Of a DNA stretch of 64,000 bases, positions 2,365 to 38,959 are shown one piece after another. The notes under the pieces were generated by a model. The model had not been told where the DNA came from. It did no database searches and saw only the letters and a list, made by a program, of their open reading frames with translations. Numbering within the stretch: the stretch's first letter is position 1; each line of letters opens with the position of its first letter. The position numbers were made by a program, and so were the translations under genes. The stretch comes from an uncultured Ruminococcus sp. (GTDB lineage: Bacteria > Bacillota > Clostridia > Oscillospirales > CAG-272). The stretch covers positions 6,091 to 70,090 of the forward strand of contig CAYSEF010000004.1 in assembly GCA_964430105.1 (NCBI GenBank), written 5' to 3'.

Positions 2365-2438
2365 TCGGAGTGACTGGATTCGAACCAGCGGCCTCTTGGT
2401 CCCGAACCAAGCACTCTACCGGACTGAGCCACACCCCG
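2365..2438 (-). tRNA. tRNA-Pro (anticodon CGG)
   Basis: The reverse complement reads CGGGGTG TG GCTC AGTCCGGTA GAGT G CTTGG TTCGGGA CCAAG AGGCC GCTGG TTCGAAT CCAGT CACTCCG A. This folds as a 74-nt cloverleaf with anticodon loop TT-CGG-GA. No CCA is encoded. Confidence 0.93.
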
Positions 2439-4920: not shown

Positions 4921-4996
4921 GCGCTACTAGCTCAGTGGATAGAGTGCCCGGCTACGAACCGGTAGGTCGCAGGTTCGAATCCTGCGTGGCGCGCCA
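4921..4996 (+). tRNA. tRNA-Arg (anticodon ACG), CCA encoded
   Basis: GCGCTAC TA GCTC AGTGGATA GAGT G CCCGG CTACGAA CCGGT AGGTC GCAGG TTCGAAT CCTGC GTGGCGC G CCA. The layout closely parallels bacterial tRNA-Arg(ACG). Confidence 0.92.
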
Positions 4997-6638: not shown

Positions 6639-7736
6639 TTACATTACTGTAACTAATTCATAATCCTGTGTGCCAAGGCCGACCTTTTCGAGACAGTCAA
6701 GCTGAATGAAAGGATTCTTGCCGTGGAGCTGTTCAAAGAGGTGACCGTGACCGGAGAGTTCCATGCCTGCGGGTACGCCTTCCTTGATGAGGTTTTCCAT
6801 CTTGATAGAATCAATAGATGCGCGCTCGATAGCTACGATGTCGTCAGATGCCATGATACCTATATCCGGTACGAGGGAAGGTGTAGTCATACCCCAGCAG
6901 TCGCAGAGCGCAGTGATCTGTGTCAGTACATTGATATAGAATACATTGCCGGGAGCGAAGGTGTCAACTACAGCCTTAGTGCAAACTGCCATGCCCATCT
7001 GGAAATCAGCATAGTCGTGTGAATCGAGAGTGATAGCACCTACAGGACATACCTTCATGCAATGCTGGCAAAGAGTGCAGTGATGGAAGTTTACACTGTA
7101 GTCGCCCTTGTTGTTAGGTTCGCTGAAGGAGTTTGCGTGGTGGTTGCAGGCAGTAATGCACTTGCCACAGTGGATGCACTTTTCCTTATCCCATACAATT
7201 CCGCCTTCGAGTCCGTGAATTTCGCCACGAGTTCTGTCAGTTACACAGCCCATTGCGATATTCTTACAAGCACCACCGAATGCACAGCAGCCATGACCCT
7301 TAACGTGAGAGAAGTCGATGAGAAAATCAGCATCGTGGATAAGGCCTGCAACGTCGATATGGCGAAGTGACTTGTATTCTACTTCTTTGGTGTAGAAATA
7401 TTTACCAAAATAGCCACAGTCATCGAGAACGGGACATCCGAGGTTGGAGTCAGTGTATCCACGTTCTTCAGGGTGACGACCGTAAACATAGTGGTCAGTT
7501 ATAAAGCATTCACCACCGGATTCCTTAATGAAGGAAACAAGCTTGCGAACAAAAATCGGTGGGATAGTGGAATATGTAACGCCACTGCCGACGTGCATCT
7601 TGATAGCGACCTTTTTACCTTTGACTTTTTCAGCAAGACCTGATTTTTTCAGCATACGGCTGAATTTTTCGGGAAGAGTCTGAGTTGCTTCATAGCGTGA
7701 GTACGCCATTGGTGCGAATAAAACTTTACTTGCCAT
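6639..7736 (-). CDS. DUF362 domain protein with an inserted 2x[4Fe-4S] ferredoxin domain
   Basis: Two CxxCxxCxxxCP-type motifs are present (CIHCGKCITACN and CTLCQHCMKVCPVGAI). The N-terminus is DUF362-like (KKVAIKMHVG). GGAGGA lies 7 nt before the ATG at 7736. Confidence 0.7.
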   Translation of the reverse strand: MASKVLFAPMAYSRYEATQTLPEKFSRMLKKSGLAEKVKGKKVAIKMHVGSGVTYSTIPPIFVRKLVSFIKESGGECFITDHYVYGRHPEERGYTDSNLGCPVLDDCGYFGKYFYTKEVEYKSLRHIDVAGLIHDADFLIDFSHVKGHGCCAFGGACKNIAMGCVTDRTRGEIHGLEGGIVWDKEKCIHCGKCITACNHHANSFSEPNNKGDYSVNFHHCTLCQHCMKVCPVGAITLDSHDYADFQMGMAVCTKAVVDTFAPGNVFYINVLTQITALCDCWGMTTPSLVPDIGIMASDDIVAIERASIDSIKMENLIKEGVPAGMELSGHGHLFEQLHGKNPFIQLDCLEKVGLGTQDYELVTVM

Positions 7737-7829
7737 GATTTTATCCTCCATGAGTATAATATTCGATGTAAATTATATCACAATTTTCTTGTTTTGTCAG
7801 TGTTTATTTTGTGAATTATCTATTTTTAA

Positions 7830-7884
7830 TAAAAAATGAGGCTACTCGCATTTCGGGAATTTCTTTCCTGATGTGAGTAGCCTC
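7830..7884 (-). terminator. Intrinsic terminator of the SBP lipoprotein gene; member B of the conserved-loop hairpin family
   Basis: A 14-bp stem, gaggctactcacat / atgcgagtagcctc (minus strand, one wobble), is followed by a run of T. The loop is nearly identical to hairpin A. Confidence 0.75.
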
Positions 7885-7920
7885 AATTCAATTTAGTTTA
7901 TTTGAGATGTTCTGATCGTT

Positions 7921-9468
7921 TTAGTGATCAAGAGCTTCGATGTTTTCTACGAGTCTTTCGAGAGACTTAACAGTAACCTTCTGTGTACTCTTGAGAGTAG
8001 AAGCAGGGCTGGTACCATCTGCACCGTTGAGCTTACGGAAAATCTTAATAAGGTCACCGAGAGATGCGGAGTAAACATAACCGAAGTCAAAACGAATGTC
8101 GGACATGATCTGGTCAAGCATCTGAGAAACAACGTTATCACGCGCATACTTCTGCTTGAGAGCAACTTCATAATATGCAGGAGTTACACTGCGGTAGGAT
8201 TCAACGCACATTGCTTCAAGGAATGCACCGCAGATATCGACTCTGTCATTTGAAGTGATCGGGAGAGCAAATACGGAAAGACCGTTGTGGGTGAATCCGC
8301 TGTAGTCAGCCTGATCTTCGTTGAGCTTAGGCAGAGGAATGATACCGTAGTCTGCTTCCATATCACGGAGAGTTTCGGTTGCGCTGAGGAATGTGGGGTA
8401 GAACATTGCGTTGTTAGCCATAAACTTTGCCGGAGGTTCAGCGTCAACAGTGGTGTTGTAAACGTTGTTGCCACTCCAAAGAAGCTTGTTCATAGCTTCG
8501 CAGAATGCGAAAGTGCGTTCACCATTGATAACGAGTTCCGGAACACCGTCGGAGTTCTTCTTTACAAGCTCAACGCCGGCAGCGCCTGTGAAGCCATCGT
8601 GTGTACCGGAGTCTGTACCACCTGTGAGAACCATACCGTGGAAGTCGTTGATATCATTGGTCTGGTTACCGTTTGTATCGTTATAGAGAGATGCGCAGTA
8701 TTCAGAGAGCAAATCGAGGGTCCATTTTCCTTCGTTAACGATCTGATACAGATCCTGACCGTTGTAATACTGAGCATAGAGGTCCTTGTTGTAGTACATA
8801 ACGTATGCACCACGGATCATTGACTGAGAAAGTTCACCTACAGCAAAGTAAACCTTACCGTCGATTTCAAGCTCATCTGTGAAGGACTGATTCCACCACG
8901 GCTGTTCCCAGTCGATGTACTGATTGTCATAAAGATTGAGAAGTGAACCTTCGATAATGATAGGTGTGGTCTGGCTCATGTGGTTAGCGAACAAATCGAA
9001 ATCCTTTGTTCCGGCTGTAACTGCTGTACGAACCTGACCAAGAACTCCGCCACCCTGATGCTGTGTATCGGTAGTCTGAATAGTGCCGATTTCAATACCA
9101 AGACGTTCTTCAACGAGAGCATTTCTCTGGTATACTGCGGAAACAACTACATCAGCGTTGTCTTCTTCAGCATAGATTTCGAGGATCATGTTGGAGTCGC
9201 CACCTCTATGTAAAACGGTAACGGTATCTCCATCGAATTTAAGGTCTGCGGGGAGGTTGTCTTTTGCGTTCAAACGCGGGTCATCTGAGGTTTCATCGTC
9301 TGTGACAGTAGCATCATTTGATCCTGCAACCGTCTCATCAGAGGAATTAGAGGTATCGGGTGTGTTAGTTTTTGAACCGGAGGTTTCATTGTCTGCTGCA
9401 TTGCTGCAAGCTGTGGGGAATACACATAGCATAGCAAGCAGAAGTGCCAATAGTCTTTTTGCCTTCAT
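7921..9468 (-). CDS. Extracellular solute-binding lipoprotein (ABC-type SBP family 1-like); no cognate permease nearby
   Basis: The start is taken at MKAKRLLALLLAMLCVFPTAC (lipobox FPTAC), with AAAGGAG upstream. An S/T/D-rich linker follows, then an SBP-like body. Confidence 0.7.
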   Translation of the reverse strand: MKAKRLLALLLAMLCVFPTACSNAADNETSGSKTNTPDTSNSSDETVAGSNDATVTDDETSDDPRLNAKDNLPADLKFDGDTVTVLHRGGDSNMILEIYAEEDNADVVVSAVYQRNALVEERLGIEIGTIQTTDTQHQGGGVLGQVRTAVTAGTKDFDLFANHMSQTTPIIIEGSLLNLYDNQYIDWEQPWWNQSFTDELEIDGKVYFAVGELSQSMIRGAYVMYYNKDLYAQYYNGQDLYQIVNEGKWTLDLLSEYCASLYNDTNGNQTNDINDFHGMVLTGGTDSGTHDGFTGAAGVELVKKNSDGVPELVINGERTFAFCEAMNKLLWSGNNVYNTTVDAEPPAKFMANNAMFYPTFLSATETLRDMEADYGIIPLPKLNEDQADYSGFTHNGLSVFALPITSNDRVDICGAFLEAMCVESYRSVTPAYYEVALKQKYARDNVVSQMLDQIMSDIRFDFGYVYSASLGDLIKIFRKLNGADGTSPASTLKSTQKVTVKSLERLVENIEALDH

Positions 9469-13589: not shown

Positions 13590-13686
13590 CGGATCGCACT
13601 CCGGAGAATCTCATGTTAAAATGAGTGCCGAAGGGGCAAGGAGAGCTGTGTGTTCTCTAATCTCTCAGGCGAAAGGACGGAGCGGT
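13590..13686 (+). promoter_or_regulatory. Glycine riboswitch, single aptamer
   Basis: The conserved blocks are CTCCGGAGAA, GTGCCGAAGGGGCAA and AATCTCTCAGGCGAAAGGACGGAG. P1 forms between cgca-ctccg and cggagcg. It sits upstream of an AGCS-family symporter, which is a classic context. Confidence 0.85.
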
Positions 13687-13730
13687 ATATCATATTTTAT
13701 ACAGCTTATAACGTCATTTGTTTTCTTCGG

Positions 13731-13759
13731 AACAGTCGATTAACTCGATTGTTTTTTTT
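13731..13759 (+). terminator. Terminator hairpin (expression platform of the glycine riboswitch)
   Basis: Stem aacagtcga / tcgattgtt, then TTTTTT, immediately before the RBS of the symporter. Confidence 0.7.
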
Positions 13760-13777
13760 ATTTTATTGGAGGAACTT

Positions 13778-15178
13778 ATGGATACTTTATCTCAGATCGT
13801 AAAAACGATCAACACCTATCTGTCGGACTACATTCTTATTTTTCTCTTGATCGGTTGCGGATTGTTCTTCACTATCAAGACAAGATTTGTTCAGGTTCGC
13901 TGCTTTGGAGAGGGAATGAAGGCTATGTTCGGTAACTTCTCGCTCAAAGGTAAAAAACATAGTAGCGGTATGTCGTCATTCCAGGCTCTTGCTACAGCTA
14001 TTGCTGCACAGGTCGGTACGGGTAATATCGTCGGTGCCTGCGGTGCTATACTTACAGGTGGTCCCGGTGCTATTTTCTGGATGTGGATTATTGCGTTCTT
14101 TGGTATGGCAACGATTTATGCCGAAGCTGTACTTGCTCAGGAAACAAGAGTAGTTCAGGATGACGGAACAGTAGTCGGTGGCCCCGTTTACTATATCACA
14201 AAGGCTTTCAAGGGAAAACTTGGTAAGTTCTTTGCAGGACTCTTTGCTTTCTCTATTATAATCGCACTTGGATGTATCGGTGCAATGGTGCAGTCAAACT
14301 CTATCGGCTCTACAATGCATACAGCTTTTGGTATTCCTTCATGGGTTGTAGGTCTTGTAATTGCTTTGATATCCGGATTTATTTTTATCGGAAATGTTCA
14401 GCGTCTTGCATCTGTTACAGAAAAAATCGTTCCCATAATGGCACTGATATATATTGTAGGCTGTCTGGTTCTCCTTATCTGCCGTATTCAGTATATACCC
14501 GAAACCTTCGCCCTTATTTTCAAGTATGCGTTTAAGCCTAATGCAATCATAGGTGGTGGCTTAGGTTATGCACTCAAAACAGCGATTTCACAGGGTGCAA
14601 AAAGAGGCTTGTTCTCAAATGAAGCAGGTATGGGTTCTACACCTCATGCACACGCTATTGCAAATGTAAAAAAGCCTCATGATCAGGGCGTTATTGCAAT
14701 GATGGGTGTGTTTGTTGATACATTTGTTGTATTGAATCTCACTGCTCTTACTGTTATCTCCACTCTTTATGCAGGCGATGGTATTCTTGCAGGTGGTGCA
14801 GTAGAAGGTGTTGGCGGTGATAATATGGCACAGCTTGCATTCTCGTCAGTTTTCGGTGAAACATTCGGTAATGCGTTCGTAGCAATATGCTTGTTGTTCT
14901 TCGCTTTCTCCACGATACTCGGATGGAATCTGTTTGCAAAGATAAATGTGGAATACCTGTTTGGTAAAAAGTCTGTTACAGTTCTTTCTGTAGTTGCTGT
15001 TATCTTTGTATTCCTCGGCTCTATTCTCAAAAATGATTTCGTGTGGGATCTCATGGATATGTTTAACCAGCTTATGGTTATTCCTAACGTACCTTCGCTT
15101 ATAGCTTTGTCAGGCATAGTAGCGACATCAGCTGCTGCCGGTGCAAAGATGTATAAGGATAGCAAGAAAAATAAATAA
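13778..15178 (+). CDS. Alanine/glycine:cation (sodium) symporter, AGCS family
   Basis: About 466 aa and multi-TM. The N-terminus is MDTLSQIVKTINTYLSDYILIFLL, and the motif FQALATAIAAQVGTGNIVG is present. GGAGGA lies before the ATG at 13778, so the ORF-track start at 13718 overlaps the terminator. Confidence 0.9.
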   Translation: MDTLSQIVKTINTYLSDYILIFLLIGCGLFFTIKTRFVQVRCFGEGMKAMFGNFSLKGKKHSSGMSSFQALATAIAAQVGTGNIVGACGAILTGGPGAIFWMWIIAFFGMATIYAEAVLAQETRVVQDDGTVVGGPVYYITKAFKGKLGKFFAGLFAFSIIIALGCIGAMVQSNSIGSTMHTAFGIPSWVVGLVIALISGFIFIGNVQRLASVTEKIVPIMALIYIVGCLVLLICRIQYIPETFALIFKYAFKPNAIIGGGLGYALKTAISQGAKRGLFSNEAGMGSTPHAHAIANVKKPHDQGVIAMMGVFVDTFVVLNLTALTVISTLYAGDGILAGGAVEGVGGDNMAQLAFSSVFGETFGNAFVAICLLFFAFSTILGWNLFAKINVEYLFGKKSVTVLSVVAVIFVFLGSILKNDFVWDLMDMFNQLMVIPNVPSLIALSGIVATSAAAGAKMYKDSKKNK

Positions 15179-24875: not shown

Positions 24876-26222
24876 ATGAAAGCTAATTTGAAGAAGATTT
24901 CTGTTCTTCTTGCGGCTCTTACAGTTGCGTCTGCTATGACAACAGCTGTTTCCGCAGGTGGCATTGCTATTTTTAAGGATGATAGAGGAAATAGTGCTAA
25001 GGGTATTTGCGCTGTTTGCGGTTCTGTTATAGACAAGTGCGAAGACACTGAAAAGGCTGAAAAAACACCGGCTGAAAAGAAGGTTTTCGCAACAAGCAAG
25101 ACAAACGGAAATGTTTCCGAGTTTATTTGGAACGACGGAAGCACAAAAATCGTTTCCTCTGCTGAAGCTAACAGAAAGCCTGAGATTAATAAGAAACCCG
25201 ATTTTAAGAAGCCTGTAAACCAATATCATGGATATGATATTATTGGCGGTAAGTATTATACTACAGAAAATGTTAAGAAAGAGCTTGCAAAATATTTCGA
25301 TGAGAATTCTTATGATCTTTATTTCCAAAAGGGAAATGAAAGAACCTTCTGCAATGGTGCTTACTACTATTCAACTGACACAGATGTAGTATACTATAAT
25401 TATAAGACCGGAAAGCTTGTTGCAAATTCGGTTGGCTCCGCTGAGGTTTATGTATACACAACCGGCGGTATTCCGTTCTTCCGTATCGATGTAACCGTTG
25501 ACAATAAGATATATGCGAAGAATAAGCCTGTACTCGAAGTTATCCCCGAGGACTGGAATCTTTCAGTTGGAGATAAGACTACATTCAAGGTTACAGCTTC
25601 CGATGGAAAGACTTACGATGATATCGTGCTGACTATCAAGGAAGGCGCAGATAATGCAAAGCTCGGTGCACAGTCCGGAATTCTCACAGCTGAGGCAAAC
25701 GGCCCTGTTGTAGTTCAGGCATACAGTAAGTCAAACAGCGATATTTACGGTGATGCTCTCATTTATATCGGAAACTATACCGGTGCTGTTACAGATGGCG
25801 GATGGAAAATTTTTGATGGTGGTATCAAGGTTGATAGTTGGAAATACGATATTTTCGATTATGAACGTCCGTGTCATGTAAATGGCTGGATAAAGGATGC
25901 AGAAGGAATTTTCGTTCCTGTTATAAAGTTTGAAGATGCAACTGTATATGATAAAAATGGTTCCTACGAAACAACTATAGTAACCGGTGGCTCAGTTTCT
26001 ATCGCTGATCTTCTCAAGGATGCGTATGGTGATAAGGATGCTGTTGCTGCAATCATTAAGAAGTACAATCTTAGCAAGTACGGTATCAAGACAGAAAAGG
26101 ATTGCTACAACTACATCGATTATCTTGACTATATTGTAAAGAAAAATGACTACAAGATTTACGCTGATATCGATATGAAGGATATCATTCTCGGACAGCT
26201 TATAAAGGATCTTATCGGTTAA
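24876..26222 (+). CDS. Secreted hypothetical protein with Ig-like (BIG2-type) repeats
   Basis: It has a signal peptide (MKANLKKISVLLAALTVASAMTTAVSA/GG). BIG2-like segments are present (VGSAEVYVYTTGG; LSVGDKTTFKVTASDG...GILTAEANGPVVVQAY). An AGGGAGG RBS precedes the start. Confidence 0.55.
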   Translation: MKANLKKISVLLAALTVASAMTTAVSAGGIAIFKDDRGNSAKGICAVCGSVIDKCEDTEKAEKTPAEKKVFATSKTNGNVSEFIWNDGSTKIVSSAEANRKPEINKKPDFKKPVNQYHGYDIIGGKYYTTENVKKELAKYFDENSYDLYFQKGNERTFCNGAYYYSTDTDVVYYNYKTGKLVANSVGSAEVYVYTTGGIPFFRIDVTVDNKIYAKNKPVLEVIPEDWNLSVGDKTTFKVTASDGKTYDDIVLTIKEGADNAKLGAQSGILTAEANGPVVVQAYSKSNSDIYGDALIYIGNYTGAVTDGGWKIFDGGIKVDSWKYDIFDYERPCHVNGWIKDAEGIFVPVIKFEDATVYDKNGSYETTIVTGGSVSIADLLKDAYGDKDAVAAIIKKYNLSKYGIKTEKDCYNYIDYLDYIVKKNDYKIYADIDMKDIILGQLIKDLIG

Positions 26223-33651: not shown

Positions 33652-33680
33652 TTGATTTGTTCATTTTGGTGAGGTATAAT
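33652..33680 (+). promoter_or_regulatory. Sigma-A type promoter for the HAD-PHP-deoC-deoD-CARF operon
   Basis: TTGATT, 17-nt spacer, TATAAT. Confidence 0.6.
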
Positions 33681-33732: not shown

Positions 33733-34404
33733 ATGTGCAAAATCGTCGATAGCGTTATATTTGATCTTGACGGAACCTTGTGGGATGCTACCACTGTTAC
33801 TGCTGAAACATGGGTCGAAATATTGCACCGTCACCGGAATATTACACCTGCACATTCGCTTGATCCTGAAAGCATAAAAAAATATATGGGTCTGACAAAT
33901 GAAGAATTGGCTGAAATATTCTTTCCGACATTGCCGTTTGATGAAGCATTTTCCTTGATGCAGGAGAGCTGTGAGCTTGAAAACCTTTGGCTTCCTAAGC
34001 ATGGAGGTGTGCTTTATCCAAATGTGGAAAAAACGCTTGATAGACTCTATTCTGAAAATATTCGTATGTTTATTGTGAGTAATTGTCAAGACGGGTATAT
34101 TGAGTCGTTTCTTGAAGCACATAAAATGTATACTCGAATAGAGGATTGGGAATGCTCGGGACGCAGTGGTAAAGCAAAATCTGCAAATATCGCTGATATC
34201 ATAAAACGAAATTCGCTTGATTTTCCAATATATGTCGGTGATACCGTTAGTGATTCTGTTGGCGCAAGAGGTGCCGGAATTCCGTTTGTGTATTGTAAAT
34301 ATGGCTTTGGCGAGAATTACGGCAGAGGAAAAACCGACGATTACGATATGGCGATCGACGATATATCAGAGCTTTCTGAATTGATCAATACAGAACATAA
34401 ATAA
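33733..34404 (+). CDS. HAD-IA family hydrolase (phosphatase; substrate unknown)
   Basis: 223 aa with motif I FDLDGTLWD, motif II VSNC, and motif IV VGDTVSD. An AAAGGAG RBS is present. Confidence 0.8.
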   Translation: MCKIVDSVIFDLDGTLWDATTVTAETWVEILHRHRNITPAHSLDPESIKKYMGLTNEELAEIFFPTLPFDEAFSLMQESCELENLWLPKHGGVLYPNVEKTLDRLYSENIRMFIVSNCQDGYIESFLEAHKMYTRIEDWECSGRSGKAKSANIADIIKRNSLDFPIYVGDTVSDSVGARGAGIPFVYCKYGFGENYGRGKTDDYDMAIDDISELSELINTEHK

Positions 34405-34413
34405 AGGTAAAAA

Positions 34414-35229
34414 ATGCAGAAATCTAATTTTCATACACATACTGTATACTCCGACGGCGATGATACCGTTCGTGAGATGATAGAAACAGCGATAAATAAA
34501 GGCTTTAATGCGATTGGCTTTTCTGACCACAGCTTTGCAAAATCTGAGCTTGATTATTGCATGAAAGCAGAGGAGCAGCGGAAAAATTACGATGAAATCC
34601 AAAAGCTTTCCGAAGAATATCGTGAAAAAATAGCTGTGTATGCCGGCGTTGAGCTTGATGGAGAGTCAGAACGTCCGGAATACCTTGATTTTGAGTATGA
34701 TTTTATAATTTCATCGGTGCATGAAATAGTACGTCATGGTGTCAGTATGCCGATAGATGCAAGTGCAGAGTTGCAAATTAAGCTTGTAAATGAGCTGTTC
34801 AGTGGTGACTGGGAAGAATTTGCAAAGGTGTATTATCACGCTTTGGTAAATCATGTAAACAGAAATAAGACCGATATCGTCGGGCATTTTGACCTTATCA
34901 CAAAATACAGCTTGATGAACGAAAATGAAAGATATATCAAATATGCTATTGAAGCCGTACATGAGATATCAAAAACCTGCCGTACTTTTGAATTGAATAC
35001 AGGTGCTATGGCGAGAGGGTACAGAACTTCTCCGTATCCGGCAGGATTTATTATTGACGAAATCAAATCATGCGGTGGCAGGATGATAATTACCTCTGAT
35101 TGTCACTGTAGAGAAAAGCTTGACTGTTGGTTTGATGAAGCTGAAAAACTGCTGTCAACACACGGATTCACAAAAATCGAACACGCAGTTCTAAACGAAA
35201 AAATACGAAATATAGAAATATGGCAATAA
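34414..35229 (+). CDS. PHP-domain phosphoesterase (histidinol-phosphatase HisJ family-like)
   Basis: 271 aa with motifs FHTHTVYSDG, GFSDHS, SVHE and GHFD. Confidence 0.8.
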   Translation: MQKSNFHTHTVYSDGDDTVREMIETAINKGFNAIGFSDHSFAKSELDYCMKAEEQRKNYDEIQKLSEEYREKIAVYAGVELDGESERPEYLDFEYDFIISSVHEIVRHGVSMPIDASAELQIKLVNELFSGDWEEFAKVYYHALVNHVNRNKTDIVGHFDLITKYSLMNENERYIKYAIEAVHEISKTCRTFELNTGAMARGYRTSPYPAGFIIDEIKSCGGRMIITSDCHCREKLDCWFDEAEKLLSTHGFTKIEHAVLNEKIRNIEIWQ

Positions 35230-35244
35230 TTATTGAGGTAAAAT

Positions 35245-35922
35245 ATGGAAATTAAAGATATATTGGCTAAAGTAGATCATACATTGCTGTCAGTTGATGC
35301 TACATGGGAGCAGATAAGGGCAGTTCTTGAGGATGCAATTTTTCTGAGATGTGCTTCTGCTTGTATTCCACCGTCATTTGTGCATAAATCAGCTGATTAT
35401 GTTGAAGGAATGGTAAAAATATGCACAGTTATAGGCTTTCCGAATGGCTATAACACCACAAGAGCGAAGGTTTATGAGGCTGTCGAGGCAGTAACAGACG
35501 GTGCTGATGAGATCGACATGGTGATAAATATCGGATGGCTTAAATCCGAAAGATACGACGATATTCTGACTGAAATCAAAGCGATAAAAAAAGCTATAAC
35601 TGAGGTTAATCCAAAGGCTGTATTGAAGGTAATTGTTGAAACGTGCCTTTTAACTGACGCTGAAAAGATAAAAATGTGTGATATCGTTTCGGAATCCGGA
35701 GCGGAATATATCAAAACCTCTACAGGCTTTTCAACAGCAGGTGCAACCGTTCACGATATCGAGCTGATGGCAAAGCACGTTAAAAACGGAGTAAAGATAA
35801 AGGCTGCCGGTGGAATATCATCACTTGAGGATGCACAAAAATTTATCGAGCTTGGCGCTGACAGACTCGGATGTAGCCGTATAGTAAAAATAGTCAAGGA
35901 GCAAGCTGAAACAATTAAATAA
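35245..35922 (+). CDS. deoC: Deoxyribose-phosphate aldolase
   Basis: 225 aa with DHTLL, the Schiff-base lysine context YIKTSTGFS, and KAAGGI. Confidence 0.92.
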
Positions 35923-35942
35923 ACTGAACCGGAGGAGATAAT

Positions 35943-36662
35943 ATGCCAACACCACACAACAGCGCAAATATAGGTGATATTGCGAAAACTGTACTAATGC
36001 CCGGGGATCCGCTGAGAGCAAAATTTGTTGCGGAGAATTTCCTCACAAATGCAAAGCTTGTCAATAATGTGCGTGGAATCGGTGGATATACGGGAGAATA
36101 CAAGGGACATTTGGTTTCTGTAATGGCAAGTGGAATGGGTATTCCGTCTATGGGAATATACTCCTATGAGCTGTATAATTTCTATAAAGTTGATAATATC
36201 ATACGAATTGGTTCTGCAGGTGCGATACAGCCACATATCCATGTCAGAGATATAGTTTTTGGTATGGGTGCTTGTACAAATTCAAATTATGCGTCACAAT
36301 ACGGACTTCATGGTACTTATTCAGCTATAGCCTCGTATAAGCTTCTTTCTGCCGGCGTTTCAGCAGCGGAAAAAATAGGTGCGAATTATCATGTAGGCAA
36401 TCTTCTTTCGTCAGACACCTTCTACAATGACGATGCAAATGAAGCAAATTCCGCATGGCAGAAAATGGGTGTAATGGCGATAGAAATGGAAGCGGCGGGA
36501 CTCTATATGAATGCGGCAAGAGCAGGGAAAAACGCACTTGCTATATGTACTATATCCGACCATATTTTAACAGGTGAAGAAACATCGGCAGAGGAAAGAC
36601 AGACTACATTTACGACAATGATGGAAGTAGCGCTTGAAACAGCAGCGACGATGGATGAATAA
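35943..36662 (+). CDS. deoD: Purine-nucleoside phosphorylase, DeoD type
   Basis: 239 aa with motifs MPTPHNSA, LMPGDPLRAKF, GMGIPSMGIYSYEL and MEAAGLY. Confidence 0.92.
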   Translation: MPTPHNSANIGDIAKTVLMPGDPLRAKFVAENFLTNAKLVNNVRGIGGYTGEYKGHLVSVMASGMGIPSMGIYSYELYNFYKVDNIIRIGSAGAIQPHIHVRDIVFGMGACTNSNYASQYGLHGTYSAIASYKLLSAGVSAAEKIGANYHVGNLLSSDTFYNDDANEANSAWQKMGVMAIEMEAAGLYMNAARAGKNALAICTISDHILTGEETSAEERQTTFTTMMEVALETAATMDE

Positions 36663-36720
36663 GATTCATTTGCAAATTTCAGCATATCCTACGAAATAAA
36701 ATCTCCCATAGGAGGTAACG

Positions 36721-38004
36721 ATGACCCTCATTGAATTGTATGACAGAACTCCTGTCGAAAATATAATAACTTCCTTAGCTCTCAAGCCCGAAAAAGTTAT
36801 TTTTATAGGCTCGGAATCACGCAAGATCAGACGTGCACTGCCATTGTATCAACAGATATTTGACAGACGCGGACTGAAAATCGAAACAGCAATACGAAGC
36901 GTAGCAAAAAATGACCTTGAATCGATTACCGATGTTTTGTACGATATACTTGAGGAGGACAGTGCAGAGGAGCAGTTCGTTGTTGATATTTCAGGTGGCG
37001 ATGAAAGCACTCTTGTTGCAGTAGGAATGATCCTCGGCAGTATAAGACACGAAAAATCAAACGATGTAAAGAATAAAAAATTATACGCTTTCCGTATAAA
37101 TGTAGTGAGCAGACGAGGAACATTGTTTGAAATACTGGAATCGAACGATGGCAGGATAAAAATAGACCGTTCTGTTTATGATTTTTCGTACAATACACAG
37201 GTGTATCTCACTGTAGAGGAAAATATTATTCTTCACGGTGGCAGGATTCTTGCGAAAGGTGTAAATTTCAAGCGCAGTGATCCGGTTTCCGAGGATATTG
37301 AGGCTATGTGGAATATATGCCGTCGTGATTGTACGATGTGGAATGCTAAAATCGGTACGCTTTCCGGAGCTGTCAGCAAATTTTCCGACAGTGCTCACCT
37401 TTTTATGTTGCCGGAAATGGCTTTTGGTGACGGAAAAAAAGATGTTGACATTGATTTGTGGAATTCTTTTGTTAATGCCGGACTTGTGTGCATAGACGAA
37501 AAGCGAACAGGTGACGGAATAATAGTATTCACATATAAAAACAAAATAGTCGAGGAATGTCTTAATAAATCCGGATCGGTTTTGGAATATTTGACATATA
37601 AAGCAGGACTTGATGAATCTGAAAACGGTGAGAGTGTGTTCAATGATGCTGAGCTAAGTGTTGTCATAGACTGGGACAATGAACCAAACGGTACATCAAA
37701 TGAAATCGACTGCATATTCATGCATGGAATGGTGCCGGTGTTCGTGTCGTGCAAAAATGGCGATGTAAAAACGGATGAGCTGTATAAGCTTGAAGCAGTT
37801 TCGGAAAAATTTGGCAGTGGATATGCAAAGACCGCACTTGTTTCTACAGTGTATTTTGATCCCGAATCAAGCTCTTATGATGGAATAAGGGCAACGGAAA
37901 CGCTGAAAAACCGTGCTGATGATATGCAGATACGAATGCTTATGAAGGTTCACACAATGACATCGGATAGACTGGGCAGCGACCTTGCGAAGCTGGTTCA
38001 GTAA
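36721..38004 (+). CDS. CARF-like sensor domain fused to a Card1/Can2-like (DUF1887-type) PD-(D/E)xK nuclease-fold domain
   Basis: 427 aa. The N-terminus has a Rossmann-like FVVDISGGDESTLVAVGM loop. The C-terminus has GSVLEYLTY, NEID-x12-SCK and ELYKLE, matching the Card1-type endonuclease fold but with Ser in place of the acidic residue of ExK. An AGGAGG RBS is present. The call is motif-level only. Confidence 0.6.
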   Translation: MTLIELYDRTPVENIITSLALKPEKVIFIGSESRKIRRALPLYQQIFDRRGLKIETAIRSVAKNDLESITDVLYDILEEDSAEEQFVVDISGGDESTLVAVGMILGSIRHEKSNDVKNKKLYAFRINVVSRRGTLFEILESNDGRIKIDRSVYDFSYNTQVYLTVEENIILHGGRILAKGVNFKRSDPVSEDIEAMWNICRRDCTMWNAKIGTLSGAVSKFSDSAHLFMLPEMAFGDGKKDVDIDLWNSFVNAGLVCIDEKRTGDGIIVFTYKNKIVEECLNKSGSVLEYLTYKAGLDESENGESVFNDAELSVVIDWDNEPNGTSNEIDCIFMHGMVPVFVSCKNGDVKTDELYKLEAVSEKFGSGYAKTALVSTVYFDPESSSYDGIRATETLKNRADDMQIRMLMKVHTMTSDRLGSDLAKLVQ

Positions 38005-38013
38005 TAATAAAAT

Positions 38014-38070
38014 AAGGCTGTAGTATTGACGGCAAGTTATCTTGTCGCAAAATATTACAGCCTTGTTTTG
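38014..38070. terminator. Bidirectional terminator shared by the CARF-nuclease gene and the convergent CYTH gene
   Basis: A 14-bp stem, aaggctgtagtatt / aatattacagcctt, encloses a small inner hairpin. A T-rich run follows on the + strand. Confidence 0.7.
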
Positions 38071-38580
38071 TTATTTGAATTTTTTTGTTTTAGCCATAGA
38101 CTTGTTTGAAAATTCCCTTGTGCCGGTCAGCTCCTTTATCACATCGATCCACTCAGGAAGTGCGAATTTTTCATCAGCATCCGAAAGCTCCACTTCAAGA
38201 ACAGCTTTACCTGAAAGTGCCTCACCGCCTATCTCATACGGATACACGTCTATCTCAATAATATGCTCACAAAATGGAAACGCATATCTAACTTTTTCAA
38301 GCTCAGATATACATTCGTGCATGAGCTTGTCGTATTCTGTGGCAGAAATTTCGTATTCGTCCTCTTGCCTGCTTATTTTGCTTCCTAAAATCGGGTGTTT
38401 TTCGGTGTAGATATAAGATATTGTTTTGTTTTCTTCGATTTTTCTGATACGTCGCTCGGTTTTTCCTTTGTATTCCAAATATGTCTGCACCATTTTTCTG
38501 ATGCGAATTCCGTTTTGCGACGTTAGAATTTTTTCGTCGGGCAATCCTATAAGAAATTTTCTCTCAGTCTCGGTAGCCAT
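38071..38580 (-). CDS. CYTH domain protein (triphosphate tunnel metalloenzyme: triphosphatase or class IV adenylate cyclase-like)
   Basis: 169 aa starting MATETERKFL, which is the ExExK signature. Further alternating acidic/basic beta-strand residues are present (RIRK, EYEI, LEVEL). Confidence 0.75.
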   Translation of the reverse strand: MATETERKFLIGLPDEKILTSQNGIRIRKMVQTYLEYKGKTERRIRKIEENKTISYIYTEKHPILGSKISRQEDEYEISATEYDKLMHECISELEKVRYAFPFCEHIIEIDVYPYEIGGEALSGKAVLEVELSDADEKFALPEWIDVIKELTGTREFSNKSMAKTKKFK

Positions 38581-38603: not shown

Positions 38604-38825
38604 TTATTCTTTGTGCTTGCCGTGTAGTGTAGCGAGAAGCTCGTCACGGGTCTTTGCATTTGTGAAAAGTACTCCGGCTTGTTCACTTGTAGTCATTTCG
38701 GTAAGTGGGCTTACGCTTACACGGCTTTCTCCCGTCATATCAAAAAAAGATTCTGCTGTGTTTTTCTCAGATACTTTTTTGTCCTCATTACGAAGCAGAC
38801 GTGGTTTGTTTGGGTTGTAATTCAT
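38604..38825 (-). CDS. Hypothetical 73-aa protein, co-transcribed with the CYTH gene
   Basis: GGAGGA lies 7 nt before the ATG at 38825 (MNYNPNKPRLL...). I recognise no domain. The longer ORF-track start at 38939 lacks an RBS. Confidence 0.5.
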   Translation of the reverse strand: MNYNPNKPRLLRNEDKKVSEKNTAESFFDMTGESRVSVSPLTEMTTSEQAGVLFTNAKTRDELLATLHGKHKE

Positions 38826-38959
38826 CTTTGATTCCTCCAAAAAAAGATTATTTCTAATCTCTCCCGAAATCATGCCGATTATACACACGCCATTCGTAAT
38901 TTTTTGTTTTATTGTAAAACAACTCCTGCGATTTGTCAATATCCATATTTGAAGCTGTC

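Follow-up and report, generated by a model that had tools for sequence, protein, structure and literature searches.

A Can2/Card1-fold CARF protein gene with an acidic CARF loop downstream of deoD in an uncultured Ruminococcus sp.

The CARF gene and its transcription unit

The window analyzed here is a 64-kb stretch (64,000 nucleotides, nt) of contig CAYSEF010000004.1 from an uncultured Ruminococcus sp., a core chromosomal region that carries the genes of Ffh, TruB, LspA, SepF, IleS, UvrC and SMC. We studied one gene in it, which follows the purine nucleoside phosphorylase gene deoD and encodes a protein of 427 amino acids (aa) composed of a CARF domain and a PD-(D/E)xK nuclease domain of the Can2/Card1 fold (hereafter the CARF gene and the CARF protein; Table 1). 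Comparison with its relatives showed that it belongs to a large, conserved clade with an acidic CARF loop and a Ser in the nuclease site, without CRISPR-Cas linkage in the sampled loci, and that its position behind deoD is confined to its own lineage.

The four genes upstream are separated by gaps of 9, 15 and 20 nt and make up a putative single transcription unit (33733..36662, + strand), 5' of which a promoter-like TTGATT-17-TATAAT lies at 33652-33680; no riboswitch or leader was detected 5' of this operon at the Rfam gathering threshold. An earlier note on this DNA had taken the CARF gene as the fifth gene of the operon, 58 nt after deoD, with its own AGGAGG ribosome-binding site and no hairpin in the gap. 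The results agreed with this description: neither a terminator nor a promoter-like site was found in the 58-nt gap, the RNA fold of which gave z = -0.66 against shuffled sequences, and a terminator was present only after the CARF stop codon. This terminator is a long perfect hairpin with a U-run (-39.4 kcal/mol on the + strand, z = -12.2). The same hairpin folds on the - strand as well (-23.4 kcal/mol, z = -6.9), and we therefore regarded it as a bidirectional terminator common to the CARF gene and the convergent CYTH gene. The genes are co-directional, with short gaps, no internal terminator and a terminator at the end, and judging from this arrangement the CARF gene is probably co-transcribed as the last gene of the HAD-PHP-deoC-deoD unit.

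Table 1. Features of the CARF locus in the window, and arrays in related loci (positions preceded by a locus name)
Feature	Position	Strand	Basis
HAD phosphatase (HAD_2)	33733-34404	+	Pfam/NCBIfam
HisJ-family PHP phosphoesterase	34414-35229	+	Pfam/NCBIfam
DeoC	35245-35922	+	Pfam/NCBIfam
DeoD/PNP (PNP_UDP_1 purine nucleoside phosphorylase)	35943-36662	+	Pfam/NCBIfam
deoD-CARF intergenic gap, 58 nt	36663..36720	+	deoD stop 36662, CARF ATG 36721
Shine-Dalgarno AGGAGG	36705..36710	+	10 nt 5' of ATG, read from sequence
Can2/Card1-fold CARF-PD-(D/E)xK protein gene (SxK / acidic-loop clade), 427 aa	36721..38004	+	open reading frame, ATG start, PF09002, PADLOC, AlphaFold2, Foldseek
CARF (Rossmann) domain, ~aa 1-155	36721..37185	+	strand/helix pattern of the model, PADLOC CARF1/3/4 (aa 1-115), 8BAO alignment
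PD-(D/E)xK nuclease domain, ~aa 281-427	37561..38001	+	PF09002, invariant columns, 8BAO and VC1899 alignments
Bidirectional intrinsic terminator, common to CARF and convergent CYTH genes	38014..38076	.	long hairpin AAGGCTGTAGTATT...AATATTACAGCCTT + T-run
CYTH/TTM (NeuTTM-like triphosphatase) gene, convergent	38071..38580	-	2FBL/3TYP full length, E = 4e-4; N-terminal ExExK motif
Sister-half arrays	L046:10001-21182; L055:3254-10796; L058:1295-6829; L074:6091-11254; L078:10001-17187; L080:6976-11239; L085:10001-13363; ~10 more loci		

Domain architecture and fold of the CARF protein

The earlier note had proposed a CARF plus Card1/Can2-type architecture, to be checked by profile searches and structure comparison, and both bore it out. 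PF09002 (Card1_endonuc) matched aa 284-376 at 30.1 bits (gathering cut-off 26.4; E = 4.1e-7), and the PADLOC profile CARF4--CARF_PDDEXK matched with E = 6.4e-21. The PADLOC model of the CARF and nuclease protein Csx1 covered aa 6-381 in one continuous stretch; NCBIfam Csa3 and, on the homologue P0027, Pfam Csa3_N gave CARF-domain matches below their cut-offs. The CARF4 profiles that match the CARF protein presumably derive from the 2020 CARF classification of Makarova et al. The AlphaFold2 model, built on 29 family members, reached a predicted local distance difference test score (pLDDT) of 90.4 and a predicted template modelling (TM) score of 0.89, and aligned over its whole length to Can2 and Card1 structures. 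Through Foldseek searches, we found that VC1899 (1XMX) was the top full-length match (E = 2e-20, TM 0.66/0.74), and further matches were SthCan2 (7BDV), Cdn1 (9U49), Card1 (6XL1/6WXW), Can2 (8BAO) and TbrCan2 (8Q3Y-8Q44), with E values of 1e-16 to 1e-17 for Can2, Card1 and Cdn1 and a weaker match to Can1 (6SCE). The assignment of a CARF domain joined to a Card1/Can2-type PD-(D/E)xK domain is secure.

The motif positions quoted in the earlier note were all correct in the translated reading frame and in the family alignment. The conserved residues of the CARF pocket are E5, N14, D89, S91, G92, G93, D94 and E95, the last six of which lie in the segment F86-M103 (FVVDISGGDESTLVAVGM). The nuclease motifs read E289 / N327-E328-x-D330 / S343-x-K345 / E353-x-x-K356, and are contained in GSVLEYLTY (G285-Y293), NEID (N327-D330), FVSCK (F341-K345) and ELYKLE (E353-E358).

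The acidic CARF loop

The residues of the canonical NxTGGTK loop bind the ribose and phosphate groups of cyclic tetra-adenylate (cA4) in TbrCan2 (PMC10783487), and the Lys of SthCan2 and Can1 (K99) is one of four conserved cA4 contacts, T42 being another (PMC7969007). The loop of the CARF protein had been called comparable to such a ligand loop, but the HMMER alignment with 8BAO (viDisGGdes versus VNISGGTKS) placed DISGGDE where NxTGGTK stands, with Asp94 and Glu95 exactly at the positions of the cA4-contacting Thr and Lys. The same loop was aligned by HMMER to NASCGLRH of VC1899. Among 267 retrieved family sequences, the loop D-x-[ST]-G-G-[DE]-[DE] was kept almost throughout, and the two adjacent acidic residues in nearly all. 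On these alignments, the acidic CARF loop appears to be a conserved new feature and a real departure of the clade from Can2.

Two reports bear on the ligand. The pocket of VC1899 is acidic or hydrophobic and the protein is not regulated by cA4 (PMC7969007), and CARF families without a Lys or Arg after strand 4, for example RtcR, were predicted in 2014 by Makarova et al. to bind other ligands (PMC4012209). With acidic residues in place of the phosphate-holding Thr and Lys, cA4 is probably not the ligand, and the conserved, polar or acidic pocket, as far as it can be read from the alignment, argues in the same direction.

The nuclease site and Ser343

The earlier note had found a Ser at the acidic position of the (D/E)xK motif and supposed that catalysis may be altered or lost. 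The Ser was confirmed as S343, whereas the supposed loss of catalysis does not follow from it. Among 29 diverse members, S343 was invariant alongside E289, E328, D330, K345, E353 and K356; the ExK Glu of the E-C-K motif was absent clade-wide, with Ser in its place, and the SxK and NExD motifs were found in at least 251 and in 266 of the 267 family sequences, respectively. The idea of a migrated glutamate, in which E353 on the following helix would replace the lost ExK Glu, gave a partial pattern: VC1899 has ECK with a helix Thr, the clade has SCK with Glu, and 8BAO has both acids. In Cfr10I and NgoMIV, the active-site Glu has migrated to the following helix.

TbrCan2, a clade 1 protein with the motif E-ExD-SxTTS-K, is a robust cA4- and Mn2+-dependent nuclease for single-stranded DNA and RNA, in which Ser356 occupies the position of Card1 Glu308 and SthCan2 Glu291 and coordinates Mn2+ in the outer sphere (Jungfer et al., PMC10783487). 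Zhu et al. mutated the acids of the ExD pair to inactivate SthCan2 and VC1899 (PMC7969007), and the equivalents of this pair in the CARF protein are E328 and D330. The in-strand Lys (K345) is kept, and the invariant helix Lys K356 has the spacing of K369 of TbrCan2. As in TbrCan2, Ser343 is not a sign of decay and is compatible with activity. Because the Ser is fixed together with the other catalytic residues, TbrCan2 is active with the same Ser, and K345 and K356 are kept, the CARF protein is likely to have nuclease activity. Its site would then be the second independent Ser-for-Glu PD-(D/E)xK site after that of TbrCan2, and helps to annotate nucleases that automated rules call dead.

Size, distribution and conservation of the clade

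We found 237 relatives in a database clustered at 90%, and a pattern scan showed that 525 species-representative genomes encode one; the 80 loci listed by that scan came nearly all from metagenome-assembled genomes of gut or rumen Oscillospirales, although Lachnospiraceae contributed a few and the isolate Brotonthovivens ammoniilytica one. We give the family size as at least 674 clusters at 50% identity, the number retrieved with E <= 1e-30 by a profile search of 1.84 billion representatives. In a neighbour-joining tree, the half containing the CARF protein (loop D-x-S-G-G) stood apart from a sister half (loop D-[LI]-T-G-G), and deoD-linked loci dominated the former, alongside a MatE-linked subgroup. 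No relatives were found in IMG/VR, INPHARED phages or PLSDB plasmids, and with no viral, phage or plasmid relatives there, an origin of the CARF gene from a mobile element was rejected.

An alignment of 29 members, the most divergent of them 35% identical, had 42 invariant columns, with two concentrations: the CARF pocket (E5, N14, D89, G92, G93) and the nuclease site (E289, N327, E328, D330, P339, F341, S343, C344, K345, N346, G347 and E353-L357). The ratio of nonsynonymous to synonymous substitution rates (dN/dS) against the nearest orthologue, 84% identical, was about 0.05, a rough value since synonymous sites are near saturation; it was taken from this closest pair only, more distant orthologues being saturated at synonymous sites. 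For the same pair, dN was 0.114 for the CARF gene, 0.097 for DeoC and 0.066 for DeoD. These results showed strong purifying selection on the CARF gene.

The orphan status, the non-canonical loop and the non-canonical ExK position might also be taken as marks of a CRISPR accessory nuclease that has decayed and lost its function, a fate ("cast adrift") proposed for VC1899. We consider this hardly credible: the roughly 42 columns that stay invariant among members only 35% identical cluster at the pocket and the active site, hundreds of clusters keep the same fixed motifs, dN/dS is low, and the window copy has an intact frame, a strong ribosome-binding site and a strong terminator. The CARF gene is maintained and functional rather than a relic.

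CRISPR-Cas and cyclase genes in the window and in related loci

Canonical Can2 is typically found inside type III loci (PMC7969007). We sampled about 97 loci of relatives, about 91 of them distinct, each with 10 kb on either side of the CARF gene; the first 86 (L001-L086) were scanned for arrays. The earlier note had reported no CRISPR-Cas partner, and this held for the whole window: no CRISPR array, tandem or spaced repeat or Rfam CRISPR-DR family was detected in its 64 kb, and none of 50 open reading frames (ORFs) in it matched Cas, CD-NTase or SMODS families. No arrays were found in the first 86 related loci, where tandem-repeat (TRF), spaced-repeat and k-mer scans, which included the window, gave only two 3-copy coding repeats. 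Cas Pfam families were absent from 11 annotated contexts of relatives, Cas families from 90 immediate neighbours of distant members, and cas genes from all of the about 97 loci. No mCpol or other cyclase gene adjoins the CARF gene, whose neighbours are DeoD and CYTH/TTM, although the 2023 PADLOC release may lack mCpol models. The association with type III CRISPR-Cas that marks Can2 and Card1 was found neither in the window nor within 10 kb of the relatives' genes.

The CARF protein might nevertheless be a stray accessory effector, that is, a cyclic-oligonucleotide-activated nuclease that works in trans with a distant Cas10, CBASS CD-NTase or mCpol. The characterized members of its CARF4/Can2 fold respond to cA4 or cyclic hexa-adenylate (cA6), S/T91-G92-G93 of the phosphate-binding loop are kept, and the inspected range was 64 kb of this genome and 10 kb around the genes of relatives. 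However, the Thr and Lys of NxTGGTK are Asp or Glu throughout the clade, VC1899, whose pocket is similarly acidic, is unresponsive to cA4, neither cas genes nor arrays occurred in the loci searched, and the gene shows a stable, vertical-looking inheritance in housekeeping contexts, with a dN near that of DeoC. Taken together, we regard a stray effector as rather improbable.

The earlier note knew of no description of a CARF sensor tied to nucleoside catabolism rather than to CRISPR immunity. As a claim of novelty this does not hold: the occurrence of PF09002 genes away from CRISPR loci was reported in 2014 (PMC4012209), VC1899 is a characterized orphan with an acidic pocket and no cA4 binding (PMC7969007), and Panoptes type II is a CRISPR-independent CARF effector system (PMC13577387). 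What seems undescribed, leaving aside the 2020 CARF classification of Makarova et al., is the large, conserved clade with an acidic loop and SxK.

Linkage to deoD across relatives

The earlier note had described a CARF sensor wired into nucleoside catabolism and called for comparative genomics of the linkage to deoC/deoD and to the CYTH gene. We divided the related loci into a near clade (at least 42% identity, with IleS 81-92% identical; 29 informative, non-redundant loci) and 59 distant loci (at most 41% identity). In the near clade, deoD stood directly upstream of the CARF gene in 19 of the 29 loci, with spacings from a 136-nt gap to a 4-nt overlap, a 9-nt gap among them. Insertions had moved deoD 0.9-8.7 kb away in five others, and the remaining five had no deoD; adjacency was broken by insertions in L004, L007, L023, L029 and L030. 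In L169 and L170, the deoD stop codon overlaps the CARF start by 4 nt (ATGA), and the deoC-deoD-CARF trio outlasts rearranged flanks; of all the observations, these argue most strongly for a genuine transcription unit.

Outside the near clade the linkage disappeared. No deo genes lay near the CARF gene in any of the 59 distant loci, whose immediate neighbours were heterogeneous (IspE in 7, MatE in 6, YgjV in 4, dehydrogenases and others). The reverse comparison gave the same picture: the close relative L089 (IleS 90%, DeoD 78%) has HAD-PHP-DeoC-DeoD without the CARF gene, and about 57 other deoC-deoD loci with room downstream had no CARF gene. In L089 (6712-12708), deoD is followed by a 250-nt promoter-bearing gap, an ORF of 381 aa (6967-8112) with a lipoprotein-type signal sequence, and three ORFs of 507, 388 and 321 aa, the lengths expected for an ABC ATPase and two permeases. 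From the sequence and the ORF sizes, we read these genes as a putative BMP-family nucleoside uptake system, an example from this lineage of genes behind deoD that fit it in function.

These results indicate that the linkage to deoC/deoD stands in the window's own clade and fails elsewhere. Linkage to deoD is a trait of one lineage rather than of the family; most simply, insertion of the CARF gene behind deoD took place in that lineage, and the arrangement was then inherited there. The CYTH gene adjoins the CARF gene in about 11 of the 29 near-clade loci and in one distant locus (L053); it is a syntenic neighbour in the window's clade, and a functional link to the CARF gene is not shown.

A CARF sensor integrated with nucleoside catabolism would sense a nucleoside-type metabolite such as (deoxy)adenosine, adenine or a sugar phosphate. 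Its output would be either regulation or a nuclease activity that supplies or controls salvage. Probable co-transcription, the position of deoD in 19 loci and the stop-start overlap in L169/L170 with its persistence through flank rearrangement are in line with this idea, and so are the order CYTH-CARF-RyR-adenine deaminase in L053 and the acidic, Lys-less pocket, which would accommodate a nucleoside with little or no charge more readily than a polyanionic cyclic oligoadenylate. Yet the pocket residues are the same family-wide, including the distant loci with no deo genes and unlike neighbours; the operon of L089 and about 57 further deoC-deoD loci do without the CARF gene; insertions often break the adjacency within the clade; and among relatives so close in IleS, adjacency is expected from common descent alone. 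We give such an integrated sensor little chance, and the data do not support a link between nucleoside catabolism and the function of the family as a whole.

Several further observations were made around these loci. In the 62%-identical relative L001 (2618-5484), an ADP-ribosylglycohydrolase gene (PF03747) lies 5' of HAD-PHP, its stop codon overlapping the HAD start, and an opposite-strand GH2 gene splits the unit before deoC; in L005, an ADP_ribosyl_GH gene lies 8 kb from the CARF gene. The distant locus L053 (2416-7225) carries, on one strand, a CYTH-like gene, the CARF nuclease, a RyR-domain protein and an adenine deaminase (Adenine_deam_C, E = 2.5e-64), and no other distant locus brings together CYTH and purine metabolism as the window does. 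A gene of about 290 aa that overlaps the CARF start in 7 distant loci was followed as a possible PHP gene and turned out to encode the housekeeping kinase IspE (TIGR00154, E = 7e-69); a weak PHP-like gene beyond IspE in distant loci was treated as local synteny. Directly behind the window's CYTH gene, a small ORF without a Pfam match (38604-38939, - strand, about 77 aa from an internal ATG) is kept in relatives, with 77-78 aa in L001 and L167 and 41% identity.

Arrays with RyR and TIR partners in the sister clade

Of 57 distant loci, about 17-18 have the CARF gene in same-strand arrays with variable partners, separated by gaps of 12-260 nt (Table 1). These loci are scattered across the sister half of the tree and make up about 30% of its D-[LI]-T-G-G loci. 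The partners include U714, a membrane protein of 580-920 aa that combines a Rossmann GxGxxG core with a RyR domain at its C terminus; stand-alone RyR-domain proteins of 93-114 aa (PF02026, E = 4.5e-38); TIR_2-Sel1-TPR proteins of 700-1470 aa; and a soluble AAA_2-AAA-Peptidase_M41 protein of about 1150 aa. A 2026 preprint reported that phage RyR-domain proteins bind or cleave the 2'/3' cyclic ADP-ribose (cADPR) signals of Thoeris (PMC13232231). From their gene content, the arrays may represent an undescribed conflict module. For part of the family, these findings hint at a conflict-system setting; they bear only indirectly on the window gene, since RyR, TIR or U714-type partners were found neither in the 64-kb window (tblastn) nor in its own clade.

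If the family belonged to a conflict or defence module of the ADP-ribose (ADPR, TIR) type, a nucleotide derived from TIR activity, or one related to it, would be sensed by the CARF pocket, and the copy in the window would act alone as an effector. The scatter of the arrays over that tree half, their short gaps and the reported binding or cleavage of 2'/3' cADPR by RyR-domain proteins would fit. Besides the missing partners in the window and its clade, the majority of distant loci are without them, co-location in variable islands is no proof of a common pathway, and ADPR-type signals are also anionic, which leaves the acidic loop unexplained. Such a module is highly unlikely as an explanation of the window gene.

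A broader version of these ideas describes a widespread, ligand-gated nuclease family, vertically inherited and wholly outside cyclic-oligoadenylate signalling, whose acidic pocket senses either a nucleoside or purine metabolite or a TIR/ADPR-derived signal. The former candidate was suggested because of the deoD operon and the adenine-deaminase neighbour, the latter because of the RyR, TIR and U714 neighbours in the sister clade. We hold this version to be unlikely; if true, it would mean a new CARF signalling axis in gut Clostridia, in which metabolic or immune nucleotides are coupled to nuclease activity.

Comparison with characterized systems and a proposed mechanism

The closest analogue of the CARF protein is VC1899 of Vibrio cholerae (1XMX), a known orphan and the founding DUF1887/PF09002 member, which has the same CARF and PD-(D/E)xK architecture without a type III CRISPR link. 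Both have the LYKLE helix motif, and their pockets, judged from sequence, are alike, that of VC1899 being acidic or hydrophobic and not cA4-binding. They differ in that identity is about 16%, that VC1899 has ECK and an Arg at the loop Lys position where the clade has SCK and Glu/Asp, and that VC1899 was interpreted as a degenerate relic, whereas the clade is large and under strong purifying selection.

The ancillary type III nucleases Can2, Card1 and Cdn1, activated by cA4 or cA6, have the same full-length fold, PF09002, the E...ExD...K residues and the helix Lys, at 13-16% identity; in contrast to them, the clade has Ser for the ExK Glu, DxSGGDE for NxTGGTK and no CRISPR linkage in the sampled loci. 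TbrCan2 of Thermoanaerobacter brockii (8Q3Y-8Q44) is alike in the Ser for the ExK Glu and in the kept E-ExD acid set (PMC10783487), but it has SxTTS with the Lys moved to the following helix, the canonical NxTGGTK and a place in a type III-D locus, whereas the window's family has the SxK Lys in place as well as helix K356. Panoptes type II (mCpol and a CARF-transmembrane protein) and RtcR are likewise CARF sensors outside CRISPR-Cas (PMC13577387, PMC4012209); their effectors, however, are a transmembrane pore and a sigma-54 activator, and the cyclase gene of Panoptes is adjacent, whereas none stands next to the window gene.

On balance, we think it somewhat more likely than not that the CARF protein is a stand-alone, ligand-gated, metal-dependent nuclease with a trigger other than cA4, expressed by read-through from the deo operon. 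By analogy with the solved relatives, it would form a homodimer, in which a small ligand, probably not cA4, would bind between the two CARF domains and reposition the two nuclease domains. This repositioning would switch on a nuclease dependent on divalent metals, which may cut single-stranded DNA or RNA, or nick DNA; E328 and D330 would bind the metals, S343 would take part in outer-sphere coordination, as its counterpart does in TbrCan2, and the catalytic lysines would be K345 and K356. Read-through from the promoter of HAD-PHP-deoC-deoD would tie CARF expression to the operon, and the biological role may lie in defence or in a stress response.

Several points weigh against this stand-alone nuclease. 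A cyclase of a type III CRISPR, CBASS or mCpol system may lie elsewhere in the genome, 64 kb of which was inspected, and the seemingly translationally coupled trio in the rearranged L169 leaves room for a functional tie to the deo genes within the clade. Nuclease activity and ligand gating are predictions for every member of the clade; the closest characterized orphan, VC1899, is essentially inactive in vitro, so that the clade could by analogy consist of non-catalytic binders; and the active-site geometry and the pocket electrostatics are judged from sequence alone.

CARF nucleases are textbook accessories of type III CRISPR, and the clade departs from them in its linkage, its loop and its wide spread in gut and rumen Clostridia. 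Were the ligand identified, the range of CARF signalling would reach past cyclic oligoadenylates, and the role of Can2-like "orphan" proteins, VC1899 among them, would be explained. The tidy deoD operon, for its part, should be regarded with caution as a lineage-level accident of synteny until shown otherwise.

Other features of the window

A glycine riboswitch aptamer (63 bits) was found at 13591-13690 (+ strand), directly 5' of the ORF at 13718-15178, and this ORF may be the one behind the match to the Na+/alanine symporter family among the window ORFs. Two tRNA genes lie at 2365-2438 (- strand) and 4921-4993 (+ strand). A second phosphorylase of the PNP_UDP_1 type is encoded at about 24876-26222 (+ strand), with a Pfam match of E = 5.9e-48 and a PADLOC match to "PN-superfamily effector" of E = 7e-13; it is probably the gene that stands beside coaD/rsmD/uvrC, as in L004.

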